Shown here: positions 1,074-57,623 of the stretch, in pieces
How the letters are laid out: every line of letters begins with the position of its first letter
Position numbering within the stretch: position 1 is the first letter of the stretch
Origin: Spirochaetia bacterium
GTDB lineage: Bacteria; Spirochaetota; Spirochaetia; SZUA-6; Bin103
DNA: 64,000 nt
Assembly (NCBI GenBank): GCA_965203905.1
Contig: CBDBDQ010000005.1
Span: 1,920,001 to 1,984,000, forward strand
Reading direction: 5' to 3'
Position numbers and translations under genes: made by a program
The notes under the pieces: model-generated
Databases searched by the model: none
What the model was told of the DNA's origin: nothing
What the model saw: only the letters and a program-made list of their open reading frames with translations

Positions 1074-4000
1074 TCACCGGACCGACCTCACATCAGCCTC
1101 GCCAGGGCCATGGTTCCGGTCGCCTGCCCCCGCCGTGTCGCCGGGGCCGTTCCGGACAGCTTCCGGTAGCGGGTGATCGCCGGCCGCCGCCGCGGCGTCG
1201 GGGTCGCGGCACAGCCTCTGAATTAATTTTTCAAGTTCAGTGGTAATGATTTGTGCCGCAGGCGTGAATTTCTTCGATGCCTTACTTAGGGCATCTATCA
1301 TTTTTCGGGTCGCCTCATAGGCTAGTTGGTCAGCCGTGGCGTCACCACCAAGCGCCATCTCCGCTTGTACCAGATATTTCTCGGCCAGCATGATAGCGAT
1401 ATCGGTCTCTAAGCTGAGCTTAGTGCCCTGTCTCATTGGAAACGACAGCCTATAAACCTGATCGATCGCTGCGGAACGCCCCCTATGCCTATGCTCATTC
1501 AGCACCACGTACCCGTATGTGGGCGCACTGATATAGACGGTTTTGCCTTCTGTGACGATATGCCCTTCTGCGAGTTTGAGCAGCAAGGGAAACACCTTTT
1601 CGATTAGGTCGTCCACTTTTGCAGGTGTCGTCGGGGCCGCTGGCTCTGGCGGCTGCGCAGGCACCGGCCCCCGTTCTACGAACCAGGTGCGTTCCCGATC
1701 CCCCTTGCGTAGCACCCACGGACCCGGCCGGTCGCGTCGGCGTCCGCACCAGAACCCCAGTGATCGCCGGTTGATTGCTTCCCTGCTTCTGTGCTGCGGC
1801 GGCGCAATTCCGATATGGCGGGAGGCCTCTTCCAGGGCCGCGGACTCCGCGCTAACAGTGACGACGTCGTCTTCCCTCTTGCACGCATCATCGATGTCGG
1901 CGGTTGTAACCTCGCGCGAGCCGAACATCCCGTGCCACGCTTCCAGGAACGCCATTGCCTCAGCTTGTTCCGGCACGGCCTCTTCCTTGACGGCTGCGTT
2001 GCCGAGCCAAGGGTCCAGGGCAGCGTTACCAAGAGCCCACACGATGGCGCTCCGAACGTAGTCGGACCACCTTCCGTAGCTGTTGATCCATGGACGAATC
2101 AAAACCGCTTCGCCACGGGCTACTTCCTCCGCGGTACCCTCAGCCCTGGTGCCGGCAAGCTTCCTCGCGTGATGGTGCGCGGACAGGATGGTAAGCACCG
2201 CGCCGAGCAACTCCGGGCGGTTTTCGCGCACGTACCGCTGCGGGTCGGGGTGGATCCGATATTGATGCAGCTCCGGCTCCATCTCATCGGTGAGCAGCTT
2301 GCACAACAACGCACGGCGCAGCATGTCGCTGCGGAACATCAGGTTGTTGCCGGTGGCGACTACCACCGTACGCCACGGTACCGTTCCGCTCGTGCGCGAT
2401 TCGCCGAGAATCCGGTCACTGATAGAGCCGGGAATGCTGTTGTCGCCACTGCTCAACGCACCTTCCAGCGCCGAGGATCCTAACGCCTGCCCGGGCTCAA
2501 CGTTGTCTATGAGCAGCACTCGCAAGCCAGCCAGTGCAACCGAAATAAGCCGCTTACGTTCCTCGTCCGCGACATCTGCCGCCTTCCGGCCAGAGATCGG
2601 TGACCACTTGGCTGGCGCACGCCCGGTAGCGATAATCGTTGCCAGATCGACCAGCGTTCCTTTCCCCGCGCCGCGATGGTTCGCGGTTATGCCGAACATC
2701 GGCACGTTGCCGGTGACGTAAGTGCGTCCGACGATCGTCAGAACTAGCGTCAGCCATATCGCCGAGTCCAGCGGGCGCGCGAAGTGCGACTCGCTCACCA
2801 CGTCCAACAACACCTGCGCGGCGGCCATGGCGTCGAACCGCGATGGCATCTGCGGCACCAGGTCAGGCGACCAGTCGTCGGTATGGAAGTCCGCGAAGAG
2901 ACCCGACTTCAAGTCGAAACCAGGCTTCGTGATGAGGGACCCGTCGCGCCTCATGGTTGGCGAATCTACGATCCCTTCAAGCAACCGAAAACGCGGGCGC
3001 GAACCGTCCAGCGTGTCCGCCTTGTAGCGGGCCTGGATCGACCCGGTAACGGCCTTGCTGGGGTCTGTGGGCGAAGACTTTCCATTTGTAAGGCGGCGCT
3101 CCCACCGCGTATACATGTCTAATCTGGTTTCCACGTCATCGTCCTTCGCTATGTCGATCCACAGGCTGCCCTCCGGGTTTTTGAGCCCAGAGTAGTCCTT
3201 TGGTAACTGGACGCGACGTAGAGCCGACAACATCCCGCTGGACGCTCCGGTAGAAGTCGATCTCACCGGCGATTCGTATAGTGCGTATTCATCGTTTGGC
3301 GTATCCACCAGAACATCGATAGCCGCGCGGGACCAAGCTAGCCTGTTACCGGACGAGATAGTGATCACAGGACGATCATCGCCTTGCTCGGCGGCGGGGT
3401 CGTCAGAAACAACGCCGGACTGATCGTCCACCGGCCACCGAACCTTATCAAATGCCACAGCTTGGGAGAGGAGTTGCTCCACGTCGCGAGCGCTTCGGTT
3501 CGGGTCTTCGTCCAACCAATCGGAGATGTCTTTACCGTTCGTATTCCGTAGCTCGAACCCCATCGCCGCCGGCAGCACAACCAGCACTTGTTCCACGCGG
3601 GCGTACTTCAGCAGGGACTCTCCGGCCTTCGCCAGGTGCCGCTGGCCGGGAAGGTCGGCGTCGCCGAGCAGCACAACCGTGTGCAGCCCTCGAGGTAGCC
3701 GCCGCGAGTGCGCCGCCGTCCACTTGCCTGCGCCTCCAGCGTTGCATGTGGCTACAAAGCCCAGTATCGCCAGTCGATCCGCGTCCTTCTCCCCTTCGAC
3801 GAGGATCAGGGGCTTGCCGCTGACCGGGACCGCGGCCAGCTCGTGAAGCCGATACGGGATCCCGCGCCCAGCCGGCGGCAACTTCCACACGACCTTGCCG
3901 TCTGCTGTGTGCCGCTGCCGAAACCTCTTCTCGCCGTACAGGCGCACGACTTCGAAGATCTCGTCGCCACGTTCGTCGCGGTAAGCGTACGTTACTCCGG

Positions 4001-4259
4001 AAGGCGGTGGCGAAGCGGCACCAACGGAACCGTCGTTCGCGTCGTGCAGCGGCGGCAGGTCCAGCCTCTCGGCCAAGTCGCTCAGAGTGCCGCCTTGGTT
4101 GCAGCCGTGGCAGAACCAGGTGCACTTGACGGGGTTCGCACTGGCGCTTGCGTGAGCGTCCGCGTGCTCCGGCAGCGGGCAGCAAATCGTAGCCTCATCG
4201 CCACGCCAGCGCTCTGGCGTAAGGTGCTGGTCGATCCACGCGCGCGCCACATTCCTCAT
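1074..4259 (-). CDS. Primase-helicase replication protein (Zn finger, TOPRIM, P-loop NTPase)
   Basis: CCPLPEHAD...WFCHGC zinc finger; LVEGEKDAD and GDADLPG TOPRIM motifs; GKDISDW; Walker A GAGKGTL; LLIDNV Walker B; ATGNN. Confidence 0.85.
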   Translation of the reverse strand: MRNVARAWIDQHLTPERWRGDEATICCPLPEHADAHASASANPVKCTWFCHGCNQGGTLSDLAERLDLPPLHDANDGSVGAASPPPSGVTYAYRDERGDEIFEVVRLYGEKRFRQRHTADGKVVWKLPPAGRGIPYRLHELAAVPVSGKPLILVEGEKDADRLAILGFVATCNAGGAGKWTAAHSRRLPRGLHTVVLLGDADLPGQRHLAKAGESLLKYARVEQVLVVLPAAMGFELRNTNGKDISDWLDEDPNRSARDVEQLLSQAVAFDKVRWPVDDQSGVVSDDPAAEQGDDRPVITISSGNRLAWSRAAIDVLVDTPNDEYALYESPVRSTSTGASSGMLSALRRVQLPKDYSGLKNPEGSLWIDIAKDDDVETRLDMYTRWERRLTNGKSSPTDPSKAVTGSIQARYKADTLDGSRPRFRLLEGIVDSPTMRRDGSLITKPGFDLKSGLFADFHTDDWSPDLVPQMPSRFDAMAAAQVLLDVVSESHFARPLDSAIWLTLVLTIVGRTYVTGNVPMFGITANHRGAGKGTLVDLATIIATGRAPAKWSPISGRKAADVADEERKRLISVALAGLRVLLIDNVEPGQALGSSALEGALSSGDNSIPGSISDRILGESRTSGTVPWRTVVVATGNNLMFRSDMLRRALLCKLLTDEMEPELHQYRIHPDPQRYVRENRPELLGAVLTILSAHHHARKLAGTRAEGTAEEVARGEAVLIRPWINSYGRWSDYVRSAIVWALGNAALDPWLGNAAVKEEAVPEQAEAMAFLEAWHGMFGSREVTTADIDDACKREDDVVTVSAESAALEEASRHIGIAPPQHRSREAINRRSLGFWCGRRRDRPGPWVLRKGDRERTWFVERGPVPAQPPEPAAPTTPAKVDDLIEKVFPLLLKLAEGHIVTEGKTVYISAPTYGYVVLNEHRHRGRSAAIDQVYRLSFPMRQGTKLSLETDIAIMLAEKYLVQAEMALGGDATADQLAYEATRKMIDALSKASKKFTPAAQIITTELEKLIQRLCRDPDAAAAAGDHPLPEAVRNGPGDTAGAGDRNHGPGEADVRSVR

Positions 4260-9029: not shown

Positions 9030-9096
9030 TGGCGAAATACGGGCCATAGCGCGCCCGTATCGTGCCGGGGCTGGCCGCCCGGTGCCTGAATGAGCC

Positions 9097-9498
9097 ATGG
9101 CCGACAGGAGGGTTGCTTTGAACAACCTCAACTCCGTTTTGATCGAGGGCAATCTGTGCCGCGATCCCGAGCTTCGCTACACGCCGAAGGGCACGCCGAC
9201 CTGCACGCTGGTGCTGGCGTCGAACCGCTCCTACAGGGACCCGGAACGCCAGGGCGAGCGCATCGAGGAAGTCTCGTTCATCGAGACCACGACCTGGGGC
9301 AAGCTCGCCGAAGTGTGCCACGAGCACTTGGCGAAGGGGCGCGGCATCCGCGTGGTCGGGCGCCTGAAGCAAGAGCGCTGGGACGATCCGCACGGCAATC
9401 AGCGCGCCAAGGTCGTGATCGTCGCCGAGCAGGTTGAGTTCCAGCCGAAGCGGCAGCCGGCCCGCCAGACGGCGGAACCGGCAGCCGCTGCCAGCTAG
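9097..9498 (+). CDS. ssb: Single-stranded DNA-binding protein (no acidic C-terminal tail)
   Basis: LNSVLIEGNLCRDPELRYTPKG, WGKLAE, KGRGIRVVGRLKQERW; true start may be the TTG at 9118 after AGGAGG. Confidence 0.95.
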   Translation: MADRRVALNNLNSVLIEGNLCRDPELRYTPKGTPTCTLVLASNRSYRDPERQGERIEEVSFIETTTWGKLAEVCHEHLAKGRGIRVVGRLKQERWDDPHGNQRAKVVIVAEQVEFQPKRQPARQTAEPAAAAS

Positions 9499-9807: not shown

Positions 9808-10004
9808 CCCGCACCATGACCTTGGCCGACCGGGCCGCGAAGCTCGGCCTGCGGGTCGAGACCGAACCGCACGGCGCCGGCGCCGGGATCGCCGGCTACA
9901 CCGTCTTTCGGGGCGGACAGTGGCTGTTCCAGGGGACCGCGGCCGAGGCGCATGCGTTCCTGGACGGCTACGGTGCCGCCCTGGCGCTGCGGTGCCTCCC
10001 ATGA
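9804..10004 (+). CDS. Small hypothetical protein
   Basis: ATGA overlaps on both sides. Confidence 0.55.
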   Translation: MTRTMTLADRAAKLGLRVETEPHGAGAGIAGYTVFRGGQWLFQGTAAEAHAFLDGYGAALALRCLP

Positions 10005-10268
10005 GCGCGCCTGAGGCACTGTGGCGAACCAAGGACGGCAAGGTCGCCATCTTCCGCCTGGTCTACCACGCCCGGCGACCTGGACACCGCCAGCTACCCC
10101 GCCGGCTATGCGCAGCGCAACCCGCGCTTTGCGCCCCTGACATCGCCCCCCGGCTACCCGCTGCAGGTACTGGCCAGCGATGGCGAGCTGCACTACGCCG
10201 AGGCAGCGGACCGGGGGCGCATCAACGCCGACGGCGTGTTCCGCCTGCGGGACCTGCGGCGCGGCTGA
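10001..10268 (+). pseudogene. Small hypothetical gene with about two apparent frameshifts
   Basis: Coding-like frame switches near 10070 and 10135 (C runs): MSAPEALWRTKDGKVAIFRLVYH / GDLDTASYPAGYAQRNP / DIAPGYPLQVLASDGELHYAEAAD...; may be sequencing error. Confidence 0.4.
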
Positions 10269-11970: not shown

Positions 11971-13080
11971 ATGAGCACCCCCGACAGACCCCAACTGCCC
12001 GCCGCGGCCGCGGTGTGCGCCGACCCGCCGGCGACGGTGCCCACCCTCACCGAGCCGGGACCGCTCGACCGCAACCCCGCCGCCGTGTACCTCGCCGCCA
12101 AGGCGTCCGCGGTCGGGCGCCGCGGCCTGCAGCGTGCGCTCAACCGCGCCGCCAAGATCCTGACCAGCGGTATCACCAAGGATGCCCTGAGGGTGGAATG
12201 GACCGAGCTCCGCTACCCGCACGTGGCGGCGCTGCGTGCCTTGCTCATCGACCAGGGCGCCGCGCCCGCCACGATCAACCACCTGCTGTCCGCCGTCCGC
12301 GGCACGGTCAGGGAGGCGTTCAACCTCGGCCTGGTCGACGCCGACACCATGCTGCGAATCGGCAACGTCAAGAGCGTGACCGCGAGCACCCTGCCGGCGG
12401 GCCGCCACGTCGACGTCGGCGACATACGCCGCCTGTTCGACACCTGCAGCGAAGGCGACACCCCGGTGGGCGCCCGCGACGCGGCCATGCTCGCCCTGCT
12501 GTACGGGTGCGGGCTGCGGCGCAGCGAGGTCGTGGCGCTGGATCTCACCGACTACGACGCCGGCGCGGTCACGGTGCGCTCAGGTAAGGGACGGAAGGAT
12601 CGCATCGTCTATCCCCCGACGGGTGGTCGCGCCGCGATCGACGCTTGGCTGGCACGCCGCGGCTTCTGGCCGGGCGCGCTGCTGGCGCCCGTGGCCAAGG
12701 GCGGCAAGATCCAGCATCGCGGCATGAGCGCCCAGGCCGTGATGCTGCGCCTGCGCCACCTGGCCAAGGCGGCCGGCATCAAACCGTTCTCGCCGCACGA
12801 CCTGCGGCGCAGCTTCGTCGGCGAGCTGCTCGACAAGGGCGCCGACATCAGCGCCGTGCAGCAGCTCGCGGGGCACTCCAACGTCTCGACCACGCAGCGC
12901 TACGACCGCCGCCCCGAGGAAGCCAAGCGGCGCGCGGCCGAGCTGCTGCACGTGCCGTACAGCGGTCCGCCGCCGATGCTGCCGGGCAAGCCCGCGGAAT
13001 CGCGGGACGATCCCCCACCCGCCGTTGAGGCCTCGCCGCCCGGGCGCGCCGATCCGCCGCCTGCAGGCGCACCTGGTTGA
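11971..13080 (+). CDS. Tyrosine recombinase (XerC/D-like, N-terminal SAM-like domain)
   Basis: RDAAMLALLYGCGLRRSE, GKGRKDR, HDLRRS, LAGHSNVSTTQRY; catalytic R-K-H-R-H-Y set intact. Confidence 0.92.
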   Translation: MSTPDRPQLPAAAAVCADPPATVPTLTEPGPLDRNPAAVYLAAKASAVGRRGLQRALNRAAKILTSGITKDALRVEWTELRYPHVAALRALLIDQGAAPATINHLLSAVRGTVREAFNLGLVDADTMLRIGNVKSVTASTLPAGRHVDVGDIRRLFDTCSEGDTPVGARDAAMLALLYGCGLRRSEVVALDLTDYDAGAVTVRSGKGRKDRIVYPPTGGRAAIDAWLARRGFWPGALLAPVAKGGKIQHRGMSAQAVMLRLRHLAKAAGIKPFSPHDLRRSFVGELLDKGADISAVQQLAGHSNVSTTQRYDRRPEEAKRRAAELLHVPYSGPPPMLPGKPAESRDDPPPAVEASPPGRADPPPAGAPG

Positions 13081-13327: not shown

Positions 13328-13368
13328 GCCGCCTTCCCCTGCCGAGTGTCGGGGGGAGGCGGCTTTTT
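13328..13368 (+). terminator. Rho-independent terminator
   Basis: GCCGCCTTCCCCTG / CGGGGGGAGGCGGC stem followed by TTTTT. Confidence 0.75.
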
Positions 13369-13382
13369 GCGTCTAAGGAACG

Positions 13383-13580
13383 ATGCCTGACCTGAACGAC
13401 TGGCGCTTGAACGGCCGGCGCCGACTCGAAGGCCGCCGGCGCACTCCGCCGTGGGTGGGGGTGCTGGTGCTGGCGATGGTGATGTACCTCGCCAGCATCG
13501 CCCTCACCTTCACGGTCGCGTTCTTCCTCGACCAGCGCATCGTCGCCATCGAGCAGCTCCTGGACATCAGGGAGAAGTAG
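13383..13580 (+). CDS. Small single-pass membrane protein
   Basis: AAGGA RBS; basic N-term then WVGVLVLAMVMYLASIALTFTVAFFL. Confidence 0.55.
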   Translation: MPDLNDWRLNGRRRLEGRRRTPPWVGVLVLAMVMYLASIALTFTVAFFLDQRIVAIEQLLDIREK

Positions 13581-13626
13581 GGGAGGTCCCAGCGGGCTGG
13601 GCGGTCCCACTGGGAAGGCGTGTACC

Positions 13627-13980
13627 CCCTCTCTGTCAAACCGTGCAAAGTCTACAAGGGCTGCGCGCGAAAAGGCCAATCCCTGCCTCTCTACGCACTC
13701 CTTTTGGCCATTTCGCCTTGTGGACTTTGGCTGCCGGTCCACAAGCGGTACACAAGGGGTCCCGCAAGCGCGGCCGCCGCCAGCGGGTTCGGCCATCCAC
13801 AGGCGTCAGCACGTAGGTCGCCCTCTCTCTCAACTGTGCAGACTTGACAAGGGGTGCGCGCGAAAATGCCAATCCCTGCCTCTCTACGCACTCCTTTTGG
13901 CAGTTTCGCCTTGTCAAGTTTTGCTGGGCTTGACAAGCGGTAGACAAGGGGTTTCGAGGGACCCGGCAAGCGCGGGGCCG
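13627..13980. repeat. Direct repeat pair (~150 bp unit, 193 bp period) with covarying stems
   Basis: Identical 34-bp core GCCAATCCCTGCCTCTCTACGCACTCCTTTTGGC in both copies; flanking differences preserve pairing. Confidence 0.9.
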
Positions 13981-14481
13981 GTGGGGAACCGCGGGGCCGG
14001 CCTTCGCTGCCTTGCCGCGCCGCCAAGCCCACCGGTACGCTGTCAATAGGGACCGCCCCCGCGGAATCCCTCCCAAGCTGGCCGCCGTCTCCTTGAGAGC
14101 CCAGGAAACGGCGGCTTTCTTTGTGCCCAGTCGCTCAGGCGCTTCAGGAGCGCTCGCAGGCGCCGGATGGTGGGCATGTACCACCTCGGCGCGGCGAGCG
14201 TGCTGTGGCCACAGGAGCGGGCACTCCGCTGGAAATTAAGAGACGGGCGCCCGGTGTCGTTTCCAAGACTCAACGGGCACCCGCGACCAGAGCCCCGGCA
14301 GGTGTCGAGATACCGACGGGAAGCGCTGATCCGTCACTTAATGTACCGCAAGCGCCGCGGCGCGTCACCTGTCCCGAGCGGCACCAGCTTCACCCCCGTG
14401 TTCCGCCACGCGGCCAGTGCTCCCACACGCTGAGACCGCCGACGAGGACGCCGAGCATCCCGCCCCGCCAGCGTGCCGCCA

Positions 14482-14721
14482 TCACGACGCGGCAAGCACC
14501 TGGCCGACGCCAGCCCGTAACGCTTCGTTCACTTGATCCCAGGTCAAAGCGTAGGGGCTGATCGGACCAGGGGCGTGCAGCAACTCGCCGGTGCGAGCGT
14601 CATGCAGAGCCCAACAGCCGTAGTCCGCGGCCCCCGGATCACGCGTGCGGGACGCAACCAAGCGGATGCCGCGTCGGTAGGCCATGGCGCGCACGCGTAC
14701 GACTTCACTTCTATCGATCAT
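14482..14721 (-). CDS. Small hypothetical protein of mobile elements
   Basis: RVRAMAYRRGIRLVASRTRDPGAADYG resembles a recurring prophage/IME small-protein motif (R..A.R.G..L.KSR.RDP...DYG). Confidence 0.55.
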   Translation of the reverse strand: MIDRSEVVRVRAMAYRRGIRLVASRTRDPGAADYGCWALHDARTGELLHAPGPISPYALTWDQVNEALRAGVGQVLAAS

Positions 14722-15015
14722 GGGTTTCTAATCTTACGCCAGCCGGCGGGTCATGTGCAATAAGCTGATCGTAGACACGCCCGAGGTGTTGCCGTTATGT
14801 TATCCAAAATTTGGTCACGAAACGTTGTTCGTGACACAGGGAGGGTAAGACTCGGCAACCCGCACCGATAGCACGACGTATCGTGCTGGTGATCTATCCC
14901 CCAGATCCTGGAAGCGGGCAATCTGAGCCAAGCCTGCTATATGCGCTTAGTAGCAGGGGAGTCTAACTAGCCTCTTGTTGGCGCTGCCGCAACACCTCCC
15001 TTTCTCAGAATCAGT

Positions 15016-16380
15016 TTGGGGAAGGGGAAGTTTGTGCGTAGACCACTACGAGAATCCAATGAACGCGGTGCCACCCGCGGCAACGGCCAGCAGAACGGTG
15101 CCGCGCTAGCGACACGGAAACGAGTTCGCAAGGACAGGAGTGATAAACCTGTCATCCCGGCCAGTGCCCGCGGGTTCAGCGACTCGTTAGAATTGGTGAA
15201 TGCTGACATCCGATACAATGTCCGCGCTGCAAAGTACGAAATCTGCCTGAATTTTTTTGACGATCCATCCGGCTGGGAGGAAGCAAACTCGCGTCGCTGG
15301 GCCTACCTGTTCGAACAGGTAGCGGAGCGCTGCGATTTCGCGACCGCCAGTAGTATAAAACCGGCGCGGTTTTCCAGGGAGCTACGCAAGCAGGTAATCG
15401 ATGCGTACGGCTTCGCACACGAGGTCGATCCATTCAAGAGCTGGCTGTTAAGCCTTCCTCCGTGGGACGGGGTTAAACGCCTGGACACTTTGCTTGACCT
15501 CGTTTTCGAGGTCCGCGCCGGTCAAGATCCGGACCTGGTTAAGTGGATCTCAGGTGTCGTGCCCACCACCGCTGTTTGGCGCTGCATGGAGCCAGGCTAC
15601 CAGCAGGACGTTGTGCCGGTGCTGATCGGGGGGCAAGGCATAGGCAAGTCCACTTATCTGCGTGCGCTGCTGCCCGACGATCGGGACGAGTGGTTCGGCG
15701 ACGGGCTGTCGCTCATCTCGGATGACAAGGCGCGGGTGGAAGCGACGTTGGGCAGGGTCATCGTCGAAATGTCGGAGATGGCCGGTTCCACCAGAGCGGA
15801 CCGGGAGCAAATGAAAGCTTATATCTCGCGTCGCAATGATAGCGGCGTCCGGTTGGCCTATCGACGCGATCCCGAGGACATGCCACGCCGCTTTGCACTG
15901 GCCGCGACCAGCAACGACCGGTCATGCCTGCCTGCCGATCCCACCGGCCTGCGTCGCTTCGCGCCGGTGGAGCTGGACGCCAAGATCGCCGGCTGCGGCG
16001 GCGAGCGCCAGCCGGCGATCTTCGTCCGCGAACGGATCGCGACCAGCCGCTCTCAACTATGGGCGGAAGCTCTGGCACGCTACAACGCCGATATCCCACC
16101 GGCCATGCCCCTCAAGCTGGAAATGGGTGCCGCCGCCGAACAGGCCGAACAGTACCGCAACGCCGATGAGGTCCTGGAGGAAAAGCTCCGCGACTGGTTG
16201 TGGGTTCAGAGTGATCCGTTTCGGCTGAAGGATGCCATGGAAGCCGCTGGTTACCGCTCGGAAGCGCCGCCTACCTCCGCCGAGGGAAAACGCGTCGCAG
16301 GCGCCCTGATTCAGCTCGGCTGCACGAGAACGAAGATCCGCGATGCGAGACTGTGGCGGCCACCGTCAGACCTGAGTTGA
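15016..16380 (+). CDS. VapE (virulence-associated E)-like P-loop ATPase/helicase
   Basis: PWDGVKRLD, LIGGQGIGKST, VEMSEM, KAYISRR.D..RLAYRR....PRRF...ATSN, LPADPTGLRRF, QLWAEA. Confidence 0.9.
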   Translation: MGKGKFVRRPLRESNERGATRGNGQQNGAALATRKRVRKDRSDKPVIPASARGFSDSLELVNADIRYNVRAAKYEICLNFFDDPSGWEEANSRRWAYLFEQVAERCDFATASSIKPARFSRELRKQVIDAYGFAHEVDPFKSWLLSLPPWDGVKRLDTLLDLVFEVRAGQDPDLVKWISGVVPTTAVWRCMEPGYQQDVVPVLIGGQGIGKSTYLRALLPDDRDEWFGDGLSLISDDKARVEATLGRVIVEMSEMAGSTRADREQMKAYISRRNDSGVRLAYRRDPEDMPRRFALAATSNDRSCLPADPTGLRRFAPVELDAKIAGCGGERQPAIFVRERIATSRSQLWAEALARYNADIPPAMPLKLEMGAAAEQAEQYRNADEVLEEKLRDWLWVQSDPFRLKDAMEAAGYRSEAPPTSAEGKRVAGALIQLGCTRTKIRDARLWRPPSDLS

Positions 16381-16412
16381 CAAAGGGTTGGTGAAGGAGT
16401 CCCCGGTCCGTA

Positions 16413-16646
16413 GACACTTCGGACACTTCAACGCTATTCGTTTTGTTTTTTTCTCCTCTCATCAGGAAACGTGTTCTACGCACTTCTTTTGCTCTGTCGT
16501 TATCCATCGCCGTAAAGGAAGTGTCCGAAGTGTCCATAGTGTCTTAGTGGTTCGGTGACAAGGATTTAACCGTGGACACTTGCGGAATTGAAGCGTCCCG
16601 AAGTGTCCGGCGAGAGCGGAGCAAGGCCGGCGAGAGCGGAGCAAGG
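16413..16646. repeat. Iteron-like 9-bp GAAGTGTCC repeats in inverted arrangement, plus 20-bp tandem repeat (putative origin)
   Basis: GACACTTC-GGACACTTC (16413-16429), GAAGTGTCC x2 (16518-16535), GGACACTT (16574), GAAGCGTCC/GAAGTGTCC (16590-16608) around a T-rich tract; CCGGCGAGAGCGGAGCAAGG x2 (16607-16646). Confidence 0.7.
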
Positions 16647-16671
16647 GTCCCCGTGGTATCGTCTCCCGAGA

Positions 16672-17289
16672 ATGAAGCGCTGCTACGCTTGTTTACACCC
16701 GCAACGCGCCGCCATCGACGCCGATCTGCTCCAGGGCATCTCCTACCGGACGGTCGCCGCGCGCTACGACATCAGCGCGGCCGCCCTCCATCGCCATCGA
16801 AGCAAGCACCTGTTCCTGCCCACTGTGGGCGACCTGCGGGGTCCAGCGACCGGGACCATGCAGTACGTCCCCGACTGGTTGCGCTGGGACGGTAGGAAGT
16901 GGCAGCCCTGCGACCCGCCCGACCCCAAAGATGTGATCGAGGTGAGCGGTCGGCCTGTAAGACCCAGCGAGTTCAAGAAGGAGGGCCGCGTGGTGGGCAC
17001 CTACACTCGCAAGACCTATCGGCTGCGCAGGTCAAAGCTCCGCTCCACAGAGCACGCCGTGGGCGACCTGCTGGGGCCGGCTGCCGGGACCACCCTCAAA
17101 CACTGGTTGCGCTGGGACGGCAATGAGTGGCAGCGCTGCGACCCGCCCAACCTCGAAGATGTGATTGAGATGCACGGTCGGCCCGAGCACAAAGGCAACA
17201 TCGTGGACCCCAAGGACCGCAGCCGCGTGCTGGGCACCTACATCCGCAAGACCTATCGGCCGCGCAGATCACGGCGCCAATCCTCGTAG
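16672..17289 (+). CDS. CxxC-HTH protein (terminase small subunit-like N-terminus) with duplicated ~70-aa C-terminal domain
   Basis: CYACLHPQRAAIDADLLQGISYRTVAARYDISAAALHRH; two copies of VGDL.GPA.GT...WLRWDG..WQ.CDPP...DVIE..GRP...V.GTY.RKTYR.RRS. Confidence 0.65.
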   Translation: MKRCYACLHPQRAAIDADLLQGISYRTVAARYDISAAALHRHRSKHLFLPTVGDLRGPATGTMQYVPDWLRWDGRKWQPCDPPDPKDVIEVSGRPVRPSEFKKEGRVVGTYTRKTYRLRRSKLRSTEHAVGDLLGPAAGTTLKHWLRWDGNEWQRCDPPNLEDVIEMHGRPEHKGNIVDPKDRSRVLGTYIRKTYRPRRSRRQSS

Positions 17290-20011: not shown

Positions 20012-20431
20012 GTGCCAAGGCCGCCAGTCTACTCTATCACAGCCTGGACTAGCCTGGATGATGCGCGGCTTGGCCTGGTGTGACGAGCCATCATAGAATA
20101 CCGACTCACAAAGGACTTCGGCACCCGTATGTGGCCCGTGGTCGAGGGGCAACGAATGGACGGTACCGCGCCTCTATCAGACGGCCTTCGTGGGGCTGGT
20201 CATCGCATCTGCCTTGCTGGGATAACCGTCAAGGTGCGCTGCTGCAACCTCTCCCACCGTCTGGTTGACGAAATCGCAATAGGAAACCAACAATCAACGA
20301 CATTGAGAGAGTCGTGCGTCTTCGGGTTCATGCCGGGTCGCAATACAAACAGTTCCGCCAAGGGAATAGCTACCGGACCCGGAGCGAATAGGTCAAGACC
20401 CAAGGAAATGGCTCCTGGCCAGGAGGGAGAG

Positions 20432-22510
20432 ATGAGGGCCGTCGTGTTTCTGTTGCTCGTCTTGGTGCTGGGAGGGTGCGATTGGATGATCGGCCCACCA
20501 GGTCCCCCTGGGCTGCCTGGACAGCGCGGAGAACGGGGGCCGGATGGGCCGCAGGGCGAACCCGGGGCCGACGGACAGCCCGGCGAGCAGGGACCACAAG
20601 GGCCGCCGGGAGAGACTGGCCCGCAGGGGCCAACGGGGCCAGCCGGGCCGCAAGGGCCGCCGGGAGAGACTGGCCCGCAGGGGCCAACGGGGCCAGCCGG
20701 GCCGCAAGGGCCGCCGGGAGAGACTGGCCCGCAGGGGCCAACGGGGCCAGCCGGGCCGCAAGGGCCGCCGGGAGAGACTGGCCCGCAGGGGCCAACGGGG
20801 CCAGCCGGCGAACCCGGAGAACCAGGCGCTGGACCGCAGGCACCACCGCCGACGGTCAGTTTGGCAGCAAGCCCGAATCCGGTGAGCGAGGGCAACACTC
20901 TCACGATGCGGGCCACACTTTCACGGACGCTGAACAGCTCGGTGTCCGTCCCGCTGACGCTGACACCAGGCACCGCGGAGCCTGATGACTACGGTCGGCT
21001 GGCGCGCATCACCATTCCCGCCAACAGCCTTACCGGCAGCGGCCGCATTACGACAGTGGACGATGCCGACTCGGACGACGAGACGTTTACGATTGCGTTG
21101 GGCAACCTGCCGCCTGCGGTGACGGCTGGCAGCCCGCCCTCGGTTACGGTGACCATCAATGACCGAACACAACCGCCGCCGGCGGCTCTACCGGTAGTGA
21201 GCATCACGGCGGGGCCGGCGGTAACCGAGGGTGGCTCTGCAACATTCACGGTACATGCAACGCCCACGCCAGCCAGTGCGCTGGCGATACGACTGGGCAC
21301 TGTGGGTAATGTTACCTTCGTCGACCCGGAGCGTCGGGGCATAGAGACGCTGACCGTCGCGGCGAACACGTCTTCGGCCGTCTGGAGGGTCGCCACCATC
21401 GACGATGACATGGACGAGCCGGACGGATCGGTGACGGCGGCCCTCCGCTCCGGCACGGGCTACACGGTCGGCTCTCCGAGGTCGGCCAGTGTAACGGTGA
21501 TCGACAATGACACCGCGCCGCTACCTGTAGTGTCGTTCTCAGCGCCCGGGTTGGATGTCTGGGACACGGACCCCGTAGAAATGGTTGAAGCCACACTTCT
21601 CCTGTCGATTCCGGCACCACAGCCGCTCACCATCAATCTCGGAAGACCAAGATTTGAGGGCGTCTACAGCCATCCGTCGTCTATATCGGTTGCCAAGGGT
21701 GAAACATCGGCGACGGTGCGGATCATTATTCACGACTTCCACTCCGGGTGGCACATTGGCGTATGGGTATTCAGCGGCGATGGATATATCGTTGGAGAAC
21801 TGCGGAGCTTTTACCTCAATGTTTACCACGACGATCGCCCACAGCACCTCGACCCACGCTGCCCCTACCCCACACATTACCCGCTGCTTGATAGGGTATC
21901 CTCTGCCGGCACGCTCTGTGCTACCAGCAACAGAGTGGTCTCGCAAACCACCCTGGATAGAGTAAGTCGCGCATCATCTACGATGCTGCAACACCGCCCG
22001 GACCTCGCGAGAATACTCAGCGCTCCCCCCGATCCCTCGGCGCCGATTCCCGAGCAGCTACGAATTCTCCCTTTTGTTGCTCTGTTCGGTCCAGATGAAG
22101 ACTGGTGCACCGCCTTTCCTGTCTACGTCGAGGCGCTCAGGCTCGACTGTGACGGGCTTTTCTTTCAACAAAGGGGGGTGACCAACAGCTACTTTAGCCT
22201 GTGTCCGGAGAACGACTTCGCCGCCTGCGTCCACCATCTAGCCCGCGCCATTTGGGCAACGCTCGGGAAAAAACAGTGGGACATCAGAGATCGCTTCAAT
22301 GAACCGGACGTGAGCCAGCTATGGAACGGCTTCGCCTTGGCGGATTATGGCACGTTCTTCACCGAGATGACGACGATCTACTTCTGCGTCAACACGAGAG
22401 TTACCTCGCCAGAGATCTACTGTGCCGACGCGCTCAAGGCGTACGACCCGGCAACGTACGAGGTGATCCACGGCATCTACCGAGGATCGGCCGACCTGCG
22501 TAGAACGTAA
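20432..22510 (+). CDS. Surface lipoprotein: collagen-like repeats, Calx-beta-like domains, degenerate zincin-like C-terminus
   Basis: Lipobox VLGGC; long G-X-Y run; two domains with T.DD...EPDG/DDETFT Calx-beta motifs; C-term VHHLARAI...FFTE...YF...[10 protein letters not shown]. Confidence 0.8.
20600..20808 (+). repeat. 54-bp tandem repeat (~3.9 copies) encoding [18 protein letters not shown]
   Basis: Identical DNA units visible directly. Confidence 0.95.
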
Positions 22511-39377: not shown

Positions 39378-40586
39378 TCAACCCGTGTCAGTCCGTCCTG
39401 TCCGTCCTAAATCCCCATCAGCTGGCAAGAGGTAGTCGCTCCACGCGTCCATGAGCTGCCGTCGCCGCTCGAACAGGTCGGAGCGCATATAAGCGCCTTC
39501 GACTCCGCCCACAACATGCGCAAGCGCCGCCTCGGCCAATTCCCTCGATTCGTCGTTCTCCGCGCACCAGGAACGGAACGACGTACGGAACCCGTGCATC
39601 GTGGCGTTGATGCCCAACCCGTTGAACAGCTTGCTCGTCGTCCTGTTCGCCATCGCCTTGCCGGTCGGTGACGGAAACAGCAGGCCCGAGCCATCGTCCA
39701 GCTTCTGCGCTTCGGCCAGCACTTCCAGCGCTTGCGTCGACAACGGTACCCGATGCTCACGGCCGGACTTCATTCTCTCGGCAGTCAAGGTCCACACCCC
39801 GGCAGGTAGATCGACCTCGCTCCAGGTGGCAAGCCGAGCCTCTCCCAATCGAGCCGCCGTCAAGATCGCGTACTCTATCAGCAGCTTGGTTCCTTGCCAC
39901 GCGGCGGACGCCCGGATCTTCGCAAGCGCCCCCGCCACCTCTCGATGATGAAGCGCCCGCCGGTGCCTCCTCGGGGCAGTCCCGTTCTTGGGCAGCACCT
40001 GCGAAATGGCGTCGCCGGCCGGATTGTCACTCCGATGCCCGGCGCCAATCGACCACCGCATCACCGCGCCTATCCGATGCCGCAGTCGCCTAGCGGTCTC
40101 GTGCTTCCCACCGTTCCAGATCGGCGTCAGCACGGACAGAATGTCAGCGCTGGTGATGGCGCCGATCGGCTTGCTCCCGATCAGCGGAGAGACGAACCGC
40201 CTGAACGATGAACGCCAGATGTCGGCGGTACGCGGATTACGCCAGGTGCTGGCGTGTATCTCGATGACAATCTCTGCCGCCTTGTCGAAGCTCGGTGTGG
40301 CTGATCCCTGCCTCGGGTCGTGCCCCTGGTAAACGGCCCGTGCGTTCTCCAGCGCCGCCTCCCGGGCTTCGGCCAGGTTGACGATAGGGAACGGGCCAAG
40401 CCCGACGTTGCATGGCTTGCCGTTGATCCGCAGCCGCTGGCTCCATGACTTGGCCACGCCGCCGTGTGCCCGCGGCTTCACCAGGAGGCTCAAGCCGTGC
40501 CCGCCGTGGCCGTCGCCGTAGCGGCCGGGTCGCTTGACGGTGCGGACGAAGGAAGCGCTCAGTCTCTTGGGACGTATCTGAGGCAT
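39378..40586 (-). CDS. P4-like tyrosine integrase with arm-binding domain
   Basis: PGRYGDG..GLSLLV, GLGPFP.VNLAEARE, LTAARLGEAR, MKSGREHRVPL, HGFRTSFRSW, LAH...EGAY. Confidence 0.95.
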   Translation of the reverse strand: MPQIRPKRLSASFVRTVKRPGRYGDGHGGHGLSLLVKPRAHGGVAKSWSQRLRINGKPCNVGLGPFPIVNLAEAREAALENARAVYQGHDPRQGSATPSFDKAAEIVIEIHASTWRNPRTADIWRSSFRRFVSPLIGSKPIGAITSADILSVLTPIWNGGKHETARRLRHRIGAVMRWSIGAGHRSDNPAGDAISQVLPKNGTAPRRHRRALHHREVAGALAKIRASAAWQGTKLLIEYAILTAARLGEARLATWSEVDLPAGVWTLTAERMKSGREHRVPLSTQALEVLAEAQKLDDGSGLLFPSPTGKAMANRTTSKLFNGLGINATMHGFRTSFRSWCAENDESRELAEAALAHVVGGVEGAYMRSDLFERRRQLMDAWSDYLLPADGDLGRTGRTDTG

Positions 40587-40609
40587 GGTCGCGGCCTTGA
40601 GTTGATGCG

Positions 40610-40775
40610 GTGTACGGTTATCACTTACGGTAGCACCATATGCGTGAAAATATGCGGTATACGACGAAACGTCAAGCGACAGGCGATTGGCGTTAAATGA
40701 CGTGATATACGTTACTTAACAGAACAAAGTGGAACAACCGGAAACACCAATTCAGTAGCCTGTTCGACTACGCGG
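40610..40775. other. Putative attachment site / right junction of the element
   Basis: AT-rich stretch upstream of int with short repeats (TACGGT x2, ATATGCG x2); abrupt switch at ~40751-40757 into HNH gene sequence. Confidence 0.6.
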
Positions 40776-42178
40776 TGCGCGAGTTGGGCTACAGCGAGGG
40801 TGCCGCCTGGCGCCGCATAAAGGCTATGCGCCTGTGCTCCGATACCGACGGAACACGCGAGCGGCTGCAGGACGGCTCGCTCTCCCTGAGCGCGGCGGCG
40901 CAGTTGCAGAACACCTTCGATCTCCTGCAGCGCACGGCCACCGCCGCCGCGGACCCCGGCTCGGCACCCGCGGCACCGGAGCTGCTGCCGCTCGGCACGG
41001 GGCCGGCTCCGGAGGCGGGGGCTTCCGGGACCGGGGCAGCGGCGCCAGCGCGACCGGTGCCGGCGCTGAACGCGGCGCAGCGGCAGGAACTGGTGGCGCA
41101 GGCGAGCGGCAAGAGCACCCGCGAGGTGAAGCAGTTGTTGGCCGGGGTGGCTCCCGAGCTGGCGCGGCCGGCGGATCGCATGCGGGCGCTGGGCGAAGGC
41201 CGCTGGGAGCTGAAGGTGGCGATCGACTCCGCCTGTCAGTGCGGGATCGAGCAGCTACGGGCACTGCTGTCGCACGTGGACCCGCACCTGACGCTGGGGC
41301 AACTGGTGGAGCGGCTGGTGCAGGACGGGCTGCAGCGCTACGACCCGGGGCGACCGCCACGCGGGCGCAAGAGTGGGCGCGGGGAGGCGAGCGCGGGCCA
41401 GGCGCTGGAGCCGAAGACGCAGGAAGAGCCGGCGGGCGGGGCGACTTCGCCGGCGAAGCGGGGCGCGCAAGAGCAACCCGGAGTGCCGGCGCCGGAGGGC
41501 ACTATCACCGGTGGCAGCACCCCGGCGCCGGTAGCGCTGTCCGCAGAGGAACCCACGCGCGGGAATGGCGGCGCCGGCATCTCGGCGGTGGCAGCGCTGT
41601 CCGCGCCGCCGGCGGGGCGCGAGACTTGTGGCAGCACCCCGGTGAGTGCCAAGCCGGCGGTGGCGGCGCCCGGCACCACTCCTTCGGCGGCGAAGTTGGT
41701 GGCTGGTTGTGGGTCCCGCGTCTCCGTACCGACGCCACGGCCGACACCACCGGCAGTCCAGAGCATGCCAACCGCGCGGGCAGCGGCGGATCGCGGTCGC
41801 ATCGCTCCTTCGCCAGCGAAGCGGGCCGGGGCGGCGAAGCGGGCCGGAGCCGTGCAGGTCGATCGCCATTCGCGACCGCAGCCGGCGCCAGCCGGCCCGT
41901 CCGGAGGCAGCACGCAGCCGCCCCACCGGGCGCGTCGATCCCGGTATATTCCGGCACCAGTGCGGCGCGAGGTGTGGCGCCGCGACGGCGGCTGCTGCAG
42001 TTACGTCGATCGGCACAGCGGGCGGCGCTGCGGGTCCCGCTTCCTGCTGGAGCTCGACCACATCGTTCCCTTCGCGCTCGGCGGCAGCGCTGAGCCCGGG
42101 AACTTGCGCCTTCGCTGTCGAGCCCACCACCGCTTCCGGCATCGGGAGGACGCGCCGTCGCCAGACGGGGCCACGTGA
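40751..42178 (+). pseudogene. HNH endonuclease gene (DUF222/13E12-like architecture), lacking ~56 N-terminal codons
   Basis: Starts at FSSLFDYAVRELGYSEGAAWRR, matching residue ~57 onward of 55397-57031; C-term RDGGCC...C......ELDHIVP...GG.....NLRLRCRAHH. Confidence 0.85.
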
Positions 42179-42402
42179 TCGGCGCCCGGCGGGGTGCGAG
42201 GTGGGCGGTCGGGTGTCGGTCCGAGGGGATTTGCAGCCGGCTTGTCGCGCAGCGTGGGATAGTCCTGAAGGCTCACACAGGCGTCGTGTCCGCGTCCCAA
42301 TATCGTGATATGGTAATGTAGTGTACCCAGCGCCAATCTGGAAGCCGCCGCCCGCTACAAGGGCTGCGAATAGAGCCCGGTCGTTCGTAGTGAGACTGCA
42401 AT

Positions 42403-43506
42403 ATGAGTAATAGACTCAAGAAACTCACAGTAAAGGGATTCAAAACGGTCGCTTCATGCATTGATTTTGAGTTCGGATCGCTTACGGCTCTAATCGGCGC
42501 CAATGGCGCTGGGAAGTCGAACTTCATTTCTTTTTTTCGAATGCTGAGCTGGGCGCTTGCAGATCCCAATAACCTGGAGCGGTATGTAGGCCGACAGGGA
42601 GGTGCCAGCACCCTCCTACATGATGGTCCGAACAACACTCGAGAGATTGAAACCGAGATTACAATTGTCACGGATACGGGTACCAACCAGTACGCGTTTC
42701 GATTGGCCTATGCGGCGGGAGACACCTTTATATTTGATTACGAGCGTTACGAGTTCTCCCGTTCACCAGATACGGTTCCGTACCGGAACGAACTAGCGGT
42801 CGGAGGCCGTGCGCCACAGCTTCTTTACTTGGCTTCGTATGACAAGACTGCCCGTTTCCTACGCGATCTGCTGAGGCGTATAGTCGTATATCAATTCCAC
42901 AATACATCAGACACGGCACGGGTACGGGGAAGATGGACGATCGATGATAGCCGATGGCTGAAGGAGGATGCTGGTAATCTAGCGCCAGTCCTGCTGAGGC
43001 TAAGAGAGGATGAGGGTGTGTATTATCAGCGAATTGTGGAAACAATTCGCCTTATTCTTCCATTTTTTTCTGACTTTGAATTGAATCCCGATCATGGGAG
43101 TCTACTCCTTCAGTGGCGTGAGCGGGACCGCGATCAGGTGTTCGGAGCGCCCCAGGCAGCGGACGGTATGTTGCGTGCGATGGCTCTCGTTACGCTCCTG
43201 TTGCAGCCAGAACAGGATTTGCCGGACGTCCTGTTCATAGACGAACCTGAGCTTGGGCTGCACCCATACGCAATTAACCTCATCGGAGGCTTGATACGTT
43301 CCTTAGCGACCCGGATACAGGTCGTTGTTGCCACTCAATCGACTCAACTGATCGATTGCTTTGAACCGAGCGACGTTGTTGTCGTTGAACGCGAGCAACG
43401 TAGTTCCTCCTTCCGTCGATTGGATGCTGACCAGCTTGTCGACTGGCTAACAGACTACTCGCTCTCTGAGCTATGGGAGAAGAACGTGCTCGGCGGGCGC
43501 CCGTAG
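42403..43506 (+). CDS. ABC-type ATPase (AAA_21/AbiEii-like)
   Basis: GANGAGKSN, ADGMLR, FIDEPELGLHP, VATQS, LSELWEKNVLGGRP; low GC. Confidence 0.9.
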   Translation: MSNRLKKLTVKGFKTVASCIDFEFGSLTALIGANGAGKSNFISFFRMLSWALADPNNLERYVGRQGGASTLLHDGPNNTREIETEITIVTDTGTNQYAFRLAYAAGDTFIFDYERYEFSRSPDTVPYRNELAVGGRAPQLLYLASYDKTARFLRDLLRRIVVYQFHNTSDTARVRGRWTIDDSRWLKEDAGNLAPVLLRLREDEGVYYQRIVETIRLILPFFSDFELNPDHGSLLLQWRERDRDQVFGAPQAADGMLRAMALVTLLLQPEQDLPDVLFIDEPELGLHPYAINLIGGLIRSLATRIQVVVATQSTQLIDCFEPSDVVVVEREQRSSSFRRLDADQLVDWLTDYSLSELWEKNVLGGRP

Positions 43507-43511
43507 TCGCT

Positions 43512-43991
43512 GTGAAGCTCAACTTCCTGGTTGAAGGGCAGACCGAAGAGACCTTCGTGAACAGTGTATTACGACCACACTTGGAGAGTCGTTCGATCAA
43601 CACCGAAGTGCGTTGCGTAGTTACCAGTCGAAAGGGTGGTTACGAGTATCGCGGTGGCCTCAATTCCTATACTCAAGCTCGAACTGATATAGTTCGGTGG
43701 ATGAACGAAGAACGTGATTCCAACACGCGATTCACCACGATGTTCGACCTCTACCGGATGCCGAGAGACTTTCCCGAGTACCAGAATACGGAGACCATCA
43801 CTGATCCCTACGATAGAGTTTGTAGGTTGGAGCATGCGATACGCGTTGATCTGCACGACCCGAGATTCATTCCTTACATTCAACTGTACGAATTTGAGGC
43901 CCTGATTCTGGCGGAATCCGAAACGCTATTGGTGCAGTTTCCCGACTGTACTGTTAGGGCAAACTTCTGCGCAGTCGAAGTCGAGCGATGA
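43512..43991 (+). pseudogene. DUF4276-like TOPRIM protein, apparently C-terminally truncated
   Basis: FLVEGQTEETFV, TTMFDLY..P.DFP, FIPYIQLYEFEALIL; expected downstream PE.IN....APSKR segment absent. Confidence 0.7.
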
Positions 43992-57031: not shown

Positions 57032-57562
57032 GGCGTAAATATAATCATGGTTGAGAAATGACCGGTTGCGGCAAGTCCCGGGACGGGCACCGGGAAGGGC
57101 TCAGGCCGGCGCTGGCGGGGTGCTGGAGGGCCTGGAGGGCGTGGCGGGATATTCCAAGGGTCGGAGGGGCCCGAACGTGCGGCAGGGGGCCGCTATGAGC
57201 AGCGCCAAACCCGTCAAGTGCTCAGCGCACTTTTTTGGCTTTTTTTTTGGCAGAATCCTGCAACGTGGAGCCGACGTGGCAGCAGTGCACCGGCGGAGAA
57301 TGGCGTTGCGGGTGGGCGGCGACACGCTCATTCCTGGACACATAGTACAGCGAACGAACCACGCACCCTGCAGGTGGCGATCTGGCAGGGACCACGCCGG
57401 GGCCATCACCGCCGCTCGGCCACACACGTGATGCAGACGTTTCGTTCAGCATGGGATGGACCTGACTCTCTCGGACTCGCTCTCTCTCGGTGGACGGCGT
57501 GGGGCGCCGTGGGCGGCGCATGGGCGGCGTGCGGCGTGGCGGCGTGGCGGCGTGTGGGCGTG

Positions 57563-57609: not shown

Positions 57610-57623
57610 CTGAGGCTCATCCT

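Follow-up and report, generated by a model that had tools for sequence, protein, structure and literature searches.

Tandem hairpin-forming units upstream of a VapE-type helicase gene in a Spirochaetia island: candidate origin-like sites with correlated changes in three segments

The crr region of satellite phage P4 consists of two direct repeats of about 120 bp that carry iterons and lie a few kilobases from ori, with the primase-helicase gene alpha in between; crr and ori contain the same iterons, which are bound by the alpha protein. A different arrangement is seen in rolling-circle and IncQ plasmids, whose ssi sites and single-strand origins are long, imperfect, strand-specific hairpins in non-coding DNA; their loops carry conserved motifs, and they are sometimes present as tandem pairs.

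The SaPI origin has iterons immediately downstream of rep, an AT-rich centre, and at least two oppositely pointing iterons on each side, which are read by the C-terminal winged helix of the helicase (PMC9371898). The origin of pRN1 is a stem-loop of about 100 nt that lies beside an SF3-helicase rep gene and in which the loop is required; relatives keep the structure but not the sequence (PMC4234260). Both the P4 alpha protein and pRN1 Rep have a C-terminal winged helix (PMC2777425).

The locus considered here lies on an island within a window of 64,000 nucleotides (the whole stretch of DNA analysed) from a Spirochaetia bacterium. The principal features are as follows.

9094-9498: SSB gene, within the island.
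11971-13080, + strand: tyrosine integrase gene (Pfam Phage_integrase, 1.1e-29; PHROG integrase).
13328-13372: hairpin with a T-run.
13383-13580, + strand: ORF of 65 aa with one hydrophobic segment and a GC3 of 0.93 (six metagenome homologues at 72-85% identity).
13581-13773, + strand: unit 1 of a tandem duplication with a period of about 193 bp (global unit alignment; repeat families D1 and D7; blastn self-match).
13774-13973, + strand: unit 2 of the tandem duplication (repeat families; blastn self-match; global unit alignment).
14081-14122, + strand: terminator-like hairpin and T-run that would close the + strand unit (inverted repeat I17, from sequence reading).
14482-14721: small leftward ORF.
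14772-14801: promoter-like site.
15034-16380, + strand: VapE-type (SF3-like) helicase gene (Pfam VapE-like_dom, 9.6e-46; PHROG DNA helicase/primase).
16405-16612, + strand: origin-like site. Two GGACACTTC iterons come first, followed by a T-rich stretch containing the centre TTCTACGCACTTCTTTTG (16473-16490) and by a pair of inverted iterons; an ACAAGG box and more iterons complete it.

Two DUF6197 genes stand beside the SSB gene, ahead of the integrase gene; past the helicase gene, a repeat-rich gap is followed by an HTH-like ORF with an internal duplication. The helicase gene product is likely the replication initiator. Its best match among phage proteins shows 34% identity, and no relatives were detected in viral contigs or, outside its own genome, in 400 genomes of the phylum. 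A search of the collection genome contigs with the integrase returned no related loci. The variable stretch of the island begins right after the integrase stop codon, and the units begin at the stop codon (13580) of the 65-aa membrane ORF, for which 23 other genomes of the family gave two weak matches (E 7e-5 and 6e-3) and viral contigs none.

Each unit presents its parts in the same order. Arm A (14 nt) is followed by a bulge of 6 nt and then by an inner stem of 12 bp, with one mismatch, that encloses a pyrimidine-rich loop of 24 nt; arm B comes next. Two boxes follow.

13646-13659, + strand: arm A of unit 1, CAAAGTCTACAAGG (inverted repeat I16; pair table).
13668-13715, + strand: inner stem of unit 1 (13668-13679 with 13704-13715) around the invariant 24-nt loop at 13680-13703 (pair table; 33-nt identity).
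13716-13729, + strand: arm B of unit 1, CCTTGTGGACTTTG, complementary to A and C (inverted repeat; pair tables).
13737-13757, + strand: boxes C (GTCCACAAG, 13737-13745) and D (GTACACAAGG, 13748-13757) of unit 1, their ACAAG cores 11 bp apart.
13839-13852, + strand: arm A of unit 2, CAGACTTGACAAGG (pair table).
13861-13908, + strand: inner stem of unit 2 (13861-13872 with 13897-13908) around the invariant loop at 13873-13896 (pair table; 33-nt identity).
13909-13922, + strand: arm B of unit 2, CCTTGTCAAGTTTT (pair tables).
13929-13949, + strand: boxes C (CTTGACAAG, 13929-13937) and D (GTAGACAAGG, 13940-13949) of unit 2.

An earlier note, made from the sequence alone, had singled out three segments in each copy, and their positions and letters all proved to be as it gave them: A1 AAAGTCTACAAGG from 13647, B1 CCTTGTGGACTTT from 13716, and C1 GTCCACAAG from 13737 in unit 1; A2 AGACTTGACAAGG from 13840, B2 CCTTGTCAAGTTT from 13909, and C2 CTTGACAAG from 13929 in unit 2. 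Box C repeats the A core directly, is fully complementary to B, and lies 7 nt past arm B in unit 1 and 6 nt past it in unit 2. Box D, 2 nt beyond box C, is a fourth copy of the arm word and is absent from that note's list. The A-to-B hairpin is long (84 nt) and imperfect, and its foot reads CAAAGTC.../...GACTTTG. A block of 33 nt (13676-13708 and 13869-13901) is identical in the two units, with two matches in none of 100 shuffles. The loop is indeed invariant, as the note had said (24 of 24 letters); it is CU-rich and contains the anti-Shine-Dalgarno-like CACUCCUUUU.

The entire unit, about 193 bp long, is duplicated in tandem, and the low identity of its flanks in the global alignment (about 56%; 28 of 50 on the left and 10 of 23 on the right) indicates that the duplication is old. 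In that alignment each arm matches at 10 of 14 positions, and the block 13660-13715 at 52 of 56. The centre has been held fixed, with the arms drifting about as far as the flanks. Conservation between the units falls in separate blocks, namely the centre, the ACAAGG half of every arm, and box D. Protein coding, which the note had marked as a point to check, finds no place here: the units are non-coding, with flat GC over the three codon positions of the overlapping ORFs and 1-nt indels between the units.

In the two-unit alignment, the A:B helix (14 pairs) has three two-sided changes (G-C to C-G, C-G to U-A, and U-G to G-C), one one-sided change (A-U to G-U), and one broken pair; the inner stem (11 pairs) has one two-sided change (G-C to U-A), so that GGCCAA/TTGGCC in unit 1 stands against TGCCAA/TTGGCA in unit 2; and the B:C helix (nine pairs) has three two-sided changes. 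Seven base pairs are thus altered on both sides yet complementary. The proportion of paired cells is 98% for A:B and the inner stem together (25 pairs) and 100% for B:C, versus 26-54% when partners are slid by one to three columns. A covariation shuffle gave 37 of 500 and 31 of 500, the floor for an alignment of two rows being about 1/16; a rough count for changed positions falling on partners and being complementary is about 4e-8. The note's assertions that A, B, and C change together with both A:B and B:C pairing kept, and that the inner stem covaries, are borne out: correlated change in A, B, and C around the invariant loop is non-random, on the basis of two sequences.

From the correlation by itself, base pairing cannot be told apart from a single word used three times, and box D is informative here: it keeps GTAsACAAGG in both units, has not taken up the CTTG word of unit 2, and displays no covariation. 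Since box D lacks the copy-specific change, a pairing constraint on A, B, and C fits better than an altered protein specificity. (The copy-specific protein-binding triplets that the note had suggested are possible, with the constancy of box D speaking against them.) Moreover, the identity of the loop and of the 13660-13715 block, set against that of the flanks, together with the seven compensatory changes, argues for selection.

How widespread is the element? Further copies had been flagged as worth seeking, and DNA search together with a covariance model yielded only the two units in their own genome and in 92 genomes of the order. By DNA, the 7.99-Mb, five-contig assembly contains only the locus itself, and in 60 relatives the only two matches fall in the GC-rich spacer. 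Over the 92 genomes, covariance model R1 found nothing beyond the two units at better than E 0.09 (other matches at least 0.09). A blastn search of the phage database with the units returned no match; in viral contigs a 23-mer gave 0 matches, and the 16-mer loop core gave 25 loci, none with iteron or box context. The same 16-mer matched 110 times in the collection genome contigs, and one of 80 loci screened is a relative (L071, the iteron site of genome G001, described below). Among 149 further loci (L111-L259, the remaining genome and metagenome matches listed) there was no relative, so that the G001 site is the sole relative among 229 collection loci screened for the loop core, among the matches listed. 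Within the window and genome, a 14-nt match at 42355 and occurrences of CTTGACAAG at 62282 and 62402 were set aside as chance or coding; the genome has other ACAAGG clusters, and the two largest that were read are a collagen-like coding repeat and an apparent chance occurrence.

Allelic comparison indicates that the presence of the units varies. Within the assembly, contig C3 follows the window collinearly over about 4500-42266, at 74-98% DNA identity, and its integrase stop codon is separated from the shared terminator by only about 30 nt: some 925 bp with the small ORF and the units are missing, and the integrase, helicase, and iteron site are kept. (The terminator hairpin at 14081-14122 has different stem letters in C3 and is still paired.) In genome G001, an integrase gene at 74% DNA identity is followed by different DNA. 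Contigs from four public metagenome runs (which leave parts of the stretch without cover in runs X3 and X4) include the window's own form, and in all four runs also alleles that lack both units and join 13580/13581 to 13974-13984 through 8-18 letters, which contain CAAGG. A 607-nt contig from run X4 has 13630-13740 replaced by 95 other letters, followed by unit 2 with 32 differences in 159 nt (about 80% identity). The alleles without units and the divergent 607-nt contig establish that the units are polymorphic and dispensable, and that divergent versions exist. In sum, the element is an orphan, dispensable in related alleles.

The core of the unit loop occurs once more on the island, in the origin-like site that starts 25 nt after the helicase stop codon. 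The inverted 17-nt arms of this site are 100% complementary and contain two GGACACTTC words each; the GC content between them is 0.42, versus 0.67 for the window. The 17-nt pattern TCTACGCACTYCTTTTG has three copies in the 8-Mb genome, all on the + strand: those in the two units, and that at 16474-16490. Common to the units and the origin-like site are the 16-nt loop core TCTACGCACTYCTTTT and the ACAAGG box. Clusters of GACACTT-type iterons are confined to 16413-16528 and contig C3, with none in the units. In both the window and C3, an ACAAGG-type box follows the right arm; C3 has the iteron arms and the box, and its centre is missing. Genome G001 has the same iteron arms and the same centre (16 of 16), and the stretches in between are not alignable. 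Conservation of the centre between two species amid unalignable surroundings indicates that the motif itself is under constraint.

The 16405-16612 site may be read as an ordinary case of an iteron origin placed after the gene for a self-loading helicase. The label "origin" is not secure, because the iteron site in G001 has no helicase gene nearby. Two viral contigs (L316 and L328) carry four to six GACACTT-type iteron words in inverted layout directly after D5-type helicase genes. The window helicase has no detectable similarity to these D5-type helicases, and the idea of a winged helix common to both was dropped when no similarity was detected. The idea that an inner stem presents the centre at the origin-like site, or at its counterpart in G001, was likewise abandoned: the folds are dominated by the iteron arms.

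These observations suggest a model, to which we assign a probability of roughly 40%, in which the units are cis-acting, hairpin-forming DNA that provides origin-like or accessory sites for the replication module of the island. Any role of the units in binding, melting, or replication is one that we infer. The units would be related to the iteron-flanked site 3' of the VapE-type helicase gene, and one factor, perhaps the helicase-initiator, a primase, or a host protein, would act on the shared centre both at the origin and in each unit. In the units, this centre would be exposed in the loop of a stem-loop or cruciform of 84 nt, whose stem would need pairing only, leaving its outer letters free to drift with compensation; the loop and the ACAAGG part would be held by sequence-specific contacts. 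Presumably, the units would offer additional or alternative places for initiation, act as priming sites, or exert control by titrating the origin or pairing with it.

The layout of the units supports this origin-like reading, in that it is the layout of the origin-like site: a left arm; a centre with TCTACGCACTYCTTTT; an inverted right arm; and further direct copies of the arm word. The agreement of that site with the SaPI origin layout also counts in favour, and the pRN1 stem-loop provides a precedent for an origin of this form. An origin-type element is also the proposal of the earlier note that gains most, through the recurrence of TCTACGCACTYCTTTT and the ACAAGG box 3' of the helicase gene; the ssDNA promoter coupled with it was rejected, as the stems have no -35/-10 pair by reading and the scan of the units was empty. 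Several features stand against an origin-like role. The unit arms (xxxxACAAGG) differ from the GGACACTTC iterons, with one box per arm, and we know of no protein with a specificity that matches them. The units end 1.07 kb before the start of the helicase gene (13973 versus 15034) rather than lying 3' of it; the stretch between their arms is not AT-rich (GC 0.59 in unit 1 and 0.57 in unit 2); and they are dispensable, as seen in contig C3 and several metagenome alleles. Alternative B:C pairing plays no part in the model. Finally, the position of the units on the coding strand, between a stop codon and a terminator, would suit an RNA element equally well.

Such an RNA element is a possible, if somewhat unlikely, alternative. 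The units might form a structured + strand RNA, either in the 3'UTR of the 65-aa ORF mRNA (a role that is possible) or as sRNAs cut from it, in which B, by switching between A and C, gates mRNA stability or access to the anti-Shine-Dalgarno-like loop. The units fill the space from the ORF stop codon (13580) to the terminator-like hairpin at 14081-14122, and lie on the same strand as the integrase gene, the ORF, and the helicase gene. The A:B and B:C pairings both covary and yield near-isoenergetic conformers (-37.2 versus -37.9 and -33.6 versus -33.1 kcal/mol), largely because A resembles C, and the loop contains CACUCCUUUU. At two stem positions the + strand has G-U, which on the - strand would become C-A. 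RNA folds of the + strand go beyond those of shuffled sequences (z -2.5 and -1.8), and those of the - strand do not (z -0.9 and -0.8). This asymmetry rests on the two wobble pairs and so is weak, and with DNA parameters the - strand is slightly more stable.

Scans give the RNA reading little to build on: no Rfam family matches the units at gathering thresholds (matches that overlap them are below gathering scores, with E > 8, and only a tRNA was found in the window); no promoter or terminator was found within either unit; and no sigma-54 pattern was seen in them by reading. The B:C helix is followed by GGTACACAAGGGG or GGTAGACAAGGGG and no U-run, so the switch is not an attenuator; with the terminator scan of the units also empty, an intrinsic terminator or attenuator switch was rejected. 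The best candidate target of the loop, GTGCGTAGA at 15034-15042 in the helicase start codon region (GTGCGTCAA in contig C3), has 9 nt complementary to it, and its duplex energy ranks only 1720 of 15990 windows; antisense action on the helicase start codon was discarded on this count. A chromosomal paralogue of the 65-aa ORF (G000:C5:1373208-1373390, 56% identity) has no such repeats beside it, and the alleles without units join the ORF stop codon almost directly to downstream sequence. In view of these two findings, the twin sRNAs that had been suggested as controlling the adjacent membrane protein are not supported as a dedicated pair, nor is a type I toxin-antitoxin locus, in which the small hydrophobic toxin ORF is always accompanied by its regulatory RNA. 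Moreover, the same centre motif is present in a site whose iteron arms are plainly of the protein-binding type.

A further reading is improbable. It posits a new class of strand-specific nucleic-acid switch, in which B pairs with two or three partners (A, C, and perhaps D) around an invariant CU-rich loop that is also embedded in the replication origin of the island. At the origin the motif would be read in duplex DNA, and in the units in a loop exposed on RNA or ssDNA, coupling replication initiation to a bistable fold, for example in a copy-number or helper-sensing device of a spirochaete integrative element.

We think it quite improbable that the units are a decaying relic, such as a duplicated fragment of an old origin, with arms matched by template switching and a centre kept identical by a short gene-conversion tract. 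Template switching, which rewrites one arm from the other in a single event, is reported to produce and maintain perfect hairpin stems and to imitate compensatory substitution, and hence is a documented route to matched stems without selection (PMC8794818). The dispensability of the units in related alleles would agree with decay, as would the absence of homologues from 92 genomes of the order, the G001 iteron site being the only relative of the loop core among the matches listed. A relic of this kind would require at least two ordered switch events per unit and a separate conversion tract, against which stands the discontinuity of the conserved blocks, and it leaves the conservation of the centre between two species at the iteron site unexplained.

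Recombination sites, or a small cassette, of the adjacent tyrosine integrase are very unlikely. The ACAAGG boxes would be recombinase-binding sites, perhaps acting in folded ssDNA as in integron attC, and site-specific recombination would account for the gain and loss of the units. What survives of this proposal, also made in the note, is the polymorphism next to the integrase: a stretch of about 925 bp from the integrase stop codon is missing in the otherwise collinear contig C3, and the junction letters of the unit-less alleles in four runs hold CAAGG. Integrase arm-type sites are often about 11 bp apart, which is the distance between boxes C and D. The parts that fail are a box at the left junction (13581), where there is none, and canonical core spacing: known tyrosine-recombinase cores have spacers of 6-8 bp, and that between B and C is 10-11 bp. 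The Pfam match of the integrase covers the catalytic domain only, with no arm-binding domain; the genome has no second 33-nt centre elsewhere that might act as a partner site; and the insert as a whole amounts to one unit present twice in tandem. Integron attC sites carry R''/R' cores (RYYYAAC ... GTTRRRY) at the hairpin foot and form cassette arrays beside intI; in the units the foot CAAAGTC.../...GACTTTG lacks the core GTTRRRY, and the integrase gene is transcribed towards them. A dispersed hairpin repeat of REP or MITE type is dismissed by the finding of two matching units in 7.99 Mb.

The meaning of the locus depends on which of these readings holds. If the units are origin-like stem-loops, they would show that VapE-type helicase islands can combine iteron origins and hairpin sites that have a core motif in common, in a phylum (Spirochaetota, here an uncultured lineage) whose mobile-element replication is, to our knowledge, unstudied. 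If they act as RNA, they would be a rare example of a switch that selection has maintained in two paralogues whose stem letters differ. In both cases, the pair of units is a compact natural compensatory-mutation experiment that lends itself to an easy bench test. The weight of all this is moderate: the element is an orphan and dispensable in related alleles; the covariation comes from two sequences; and the function is putative.

Compared with the described systems, the units fall outside every family tested (SaPI-type, P4 crr, attC, REP, attenuator, and Rfam) and match only the structural feature of the pRN1-type stem-loop. Their placement among origin-associated hairpin or iteron elements is open to real doubt. 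Like tandem paralogous sRNAs with conserved seed loops, they come as two tandem copies whose stems vary around an unpaired CU-rich stretch that is invariant; unlike them, they have no per-copy promoter or terminator in the scan and no Rfam match. They resemble ssi sites and the ssDNA promoters of conjugative leading regions as long, imperfect, non-coding hairpins with a conserved loop, and the island contains an SSB gene; the differences are that no rolling-circle Rep or relaxase was found among the island ORFs scanned, that the stems have no -35/-10 pair, and that neither strand is favoured with DNA parameters.

The likeness to P4 ori and crr lies in two direct repeats and an iteron site that flank a helicase gene. 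The repeats of crr carry the iterons of ori, whereas the unit boxes are other words than the iterons at the origin-like site, with no GACACTT-type iteron among them, and only the centre motif and the ACAAGG box are common.

The SaPI/PICI Rep-ori arrangement, where the winged helix of Rep binds the iterons and melts the origin, is matched in layout by the 16405-16612 site, which directly follows the helicase gene and has two opposed iterons per side and a T-rich centre. The units share the centre motif and the part order of that site. They differ in lying upstream of the helicase gene and not immediately downstream of it; in having one box per arm, with other box words, in place of at least two opposed iterons per side; and in their centre, which is folded into a 12-bp stem of its own and is not rich in AT. 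The window helicase itself is VapE-type, and it is a D5-type helicase that stands beside the same iterons in the viral contigs.

With the pRN1-type stem-loop origin, the units have in common 84-nt stem-loops, covarying stems, and an invariant loop (25 pairs, with 98% of cells paired and four two-sided changes, from two sequences only). pRN1 is an archaeal replicon, a Sulfolobus plasmid whose Rep combines prim-pol, SF3 helicase, and winged helix, and its stem-loop, necessary and sufficient in cis for replication by the neighbouring Rep, is single and lies 3' of rep; the units, in contrast, carry the extra boxes C and D with alternative pairing, and alleles without them exist, so they are not essential to the island. 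If the units are indeed origin-like, they would form a bridge between the SaPI-type and pRN1-type designs.

About 38 kb of the window (~4500-42266) is collinear, at 74-98% identity, with positions 65054-28093 of contig C3 of the same assembly (and with positions 1877-6561 of C4, another of its contigs). The counterpart on C3, a separate 107-kb contig, is a paralogous or strain-variant region in which the helicase gene is interrupted by TGA. Contamination of the assembly stands at 7.9%, and a second strain may be its source.

At the right edge of this common region (39378-44000) lie, in order, a second integrase, which carries an arm-binding domain, an ORF with an HNH domain, and a low-GC, defence-like pair, AAA_21 and DUF4276. 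To the left, a low-GC stretch encodes a 1061-aa ORF (1074-4259, minus strand) with weak matches to DnaG-type primase and PRK07078; it could be a second replication gene. The island also contains a collagen-like repeat ORF (20129-22510; 54-bp period, 4.2 copies, 97% identity), with a weak, sub-threshold match to LapA. Farther right, 3.1 perfect copies of GTGTTGACA (57560-57587) occur about 35 nt upstream of a tRNA gene:

57623-57708, tRNA-Leu(CAG)

One hairpin precedes the 65-aa ORF, which encodes a small membrane protein, and another follows the two tandem repeat units. The first, a strong GC hairpin with a T-run (13328-13372), lies only about 10 nt 5' of this ORF's Shine-Dalgarno sequence, and the chromosomal paralogue of the ORF also has a hairpin upstream (L027, ~1430-1460). 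Such a hairpin might act as a leader or attenuator in this family of small membrane proteins. On the 3' side of the units is a terminator-like hairpin (14081-14122; C3 counterpart, ~56190-56150). Its stem letters differ in C3, with pairing kept: GCCGCCGT.../...ACGGCGGC versus AGCCGCTCCACC.../...GGTGGAGCGGCT.

Two ORFs stand beside the helicase gene. One, of 79 aa (14482-14721, minus strand), diverges from the helicase promoter and shares 92.6% amino-acid and ~81% DNA identity with C3; the libraries scanned held no family match for it. The other (16588-17289) combines an N-terminus of CxxC plus HTH-like type with two internal repeats of ~70 aa (WLRWDG...GTY.RKTYR). Part of it recurs in the related genome G001 and on C3, and its sole family match, a weak one, is D5_N.

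The loop core of the units is complementary to the helicase start region GTGCGTAGA (15034-15042), at a level that is statistically not exceptional. In C3, which lacks both the units and the centre motif formed by this core, the start region reads GTGCGTCAA.

Directly 3' of the VapE-type helicase gene is the following:

16405-16612, origin-like site

Its T-rich centre (GC 0.42) has two GGACACTTC iterons on the left and two iterons in inverted orientation on the right; an ACAAGG box comes next, followed by three additional iterons. The site is kept in C3 (L022, ~1497-1662), without the centre motif, and in G001 (L017, ~9950-10135), where no helicase gene was found near the copy.

Iterons of the GGACACTTC type, inverted as in the window site, also lie directly 3' of D5/P4-type helicase genes in the IMG/VR contigs L316 (640-870) and L328 (715-825), and likewise in L345 and L404. 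These are unrelated viral contigs. One iteron word seems to be in use next to helicases from different families.
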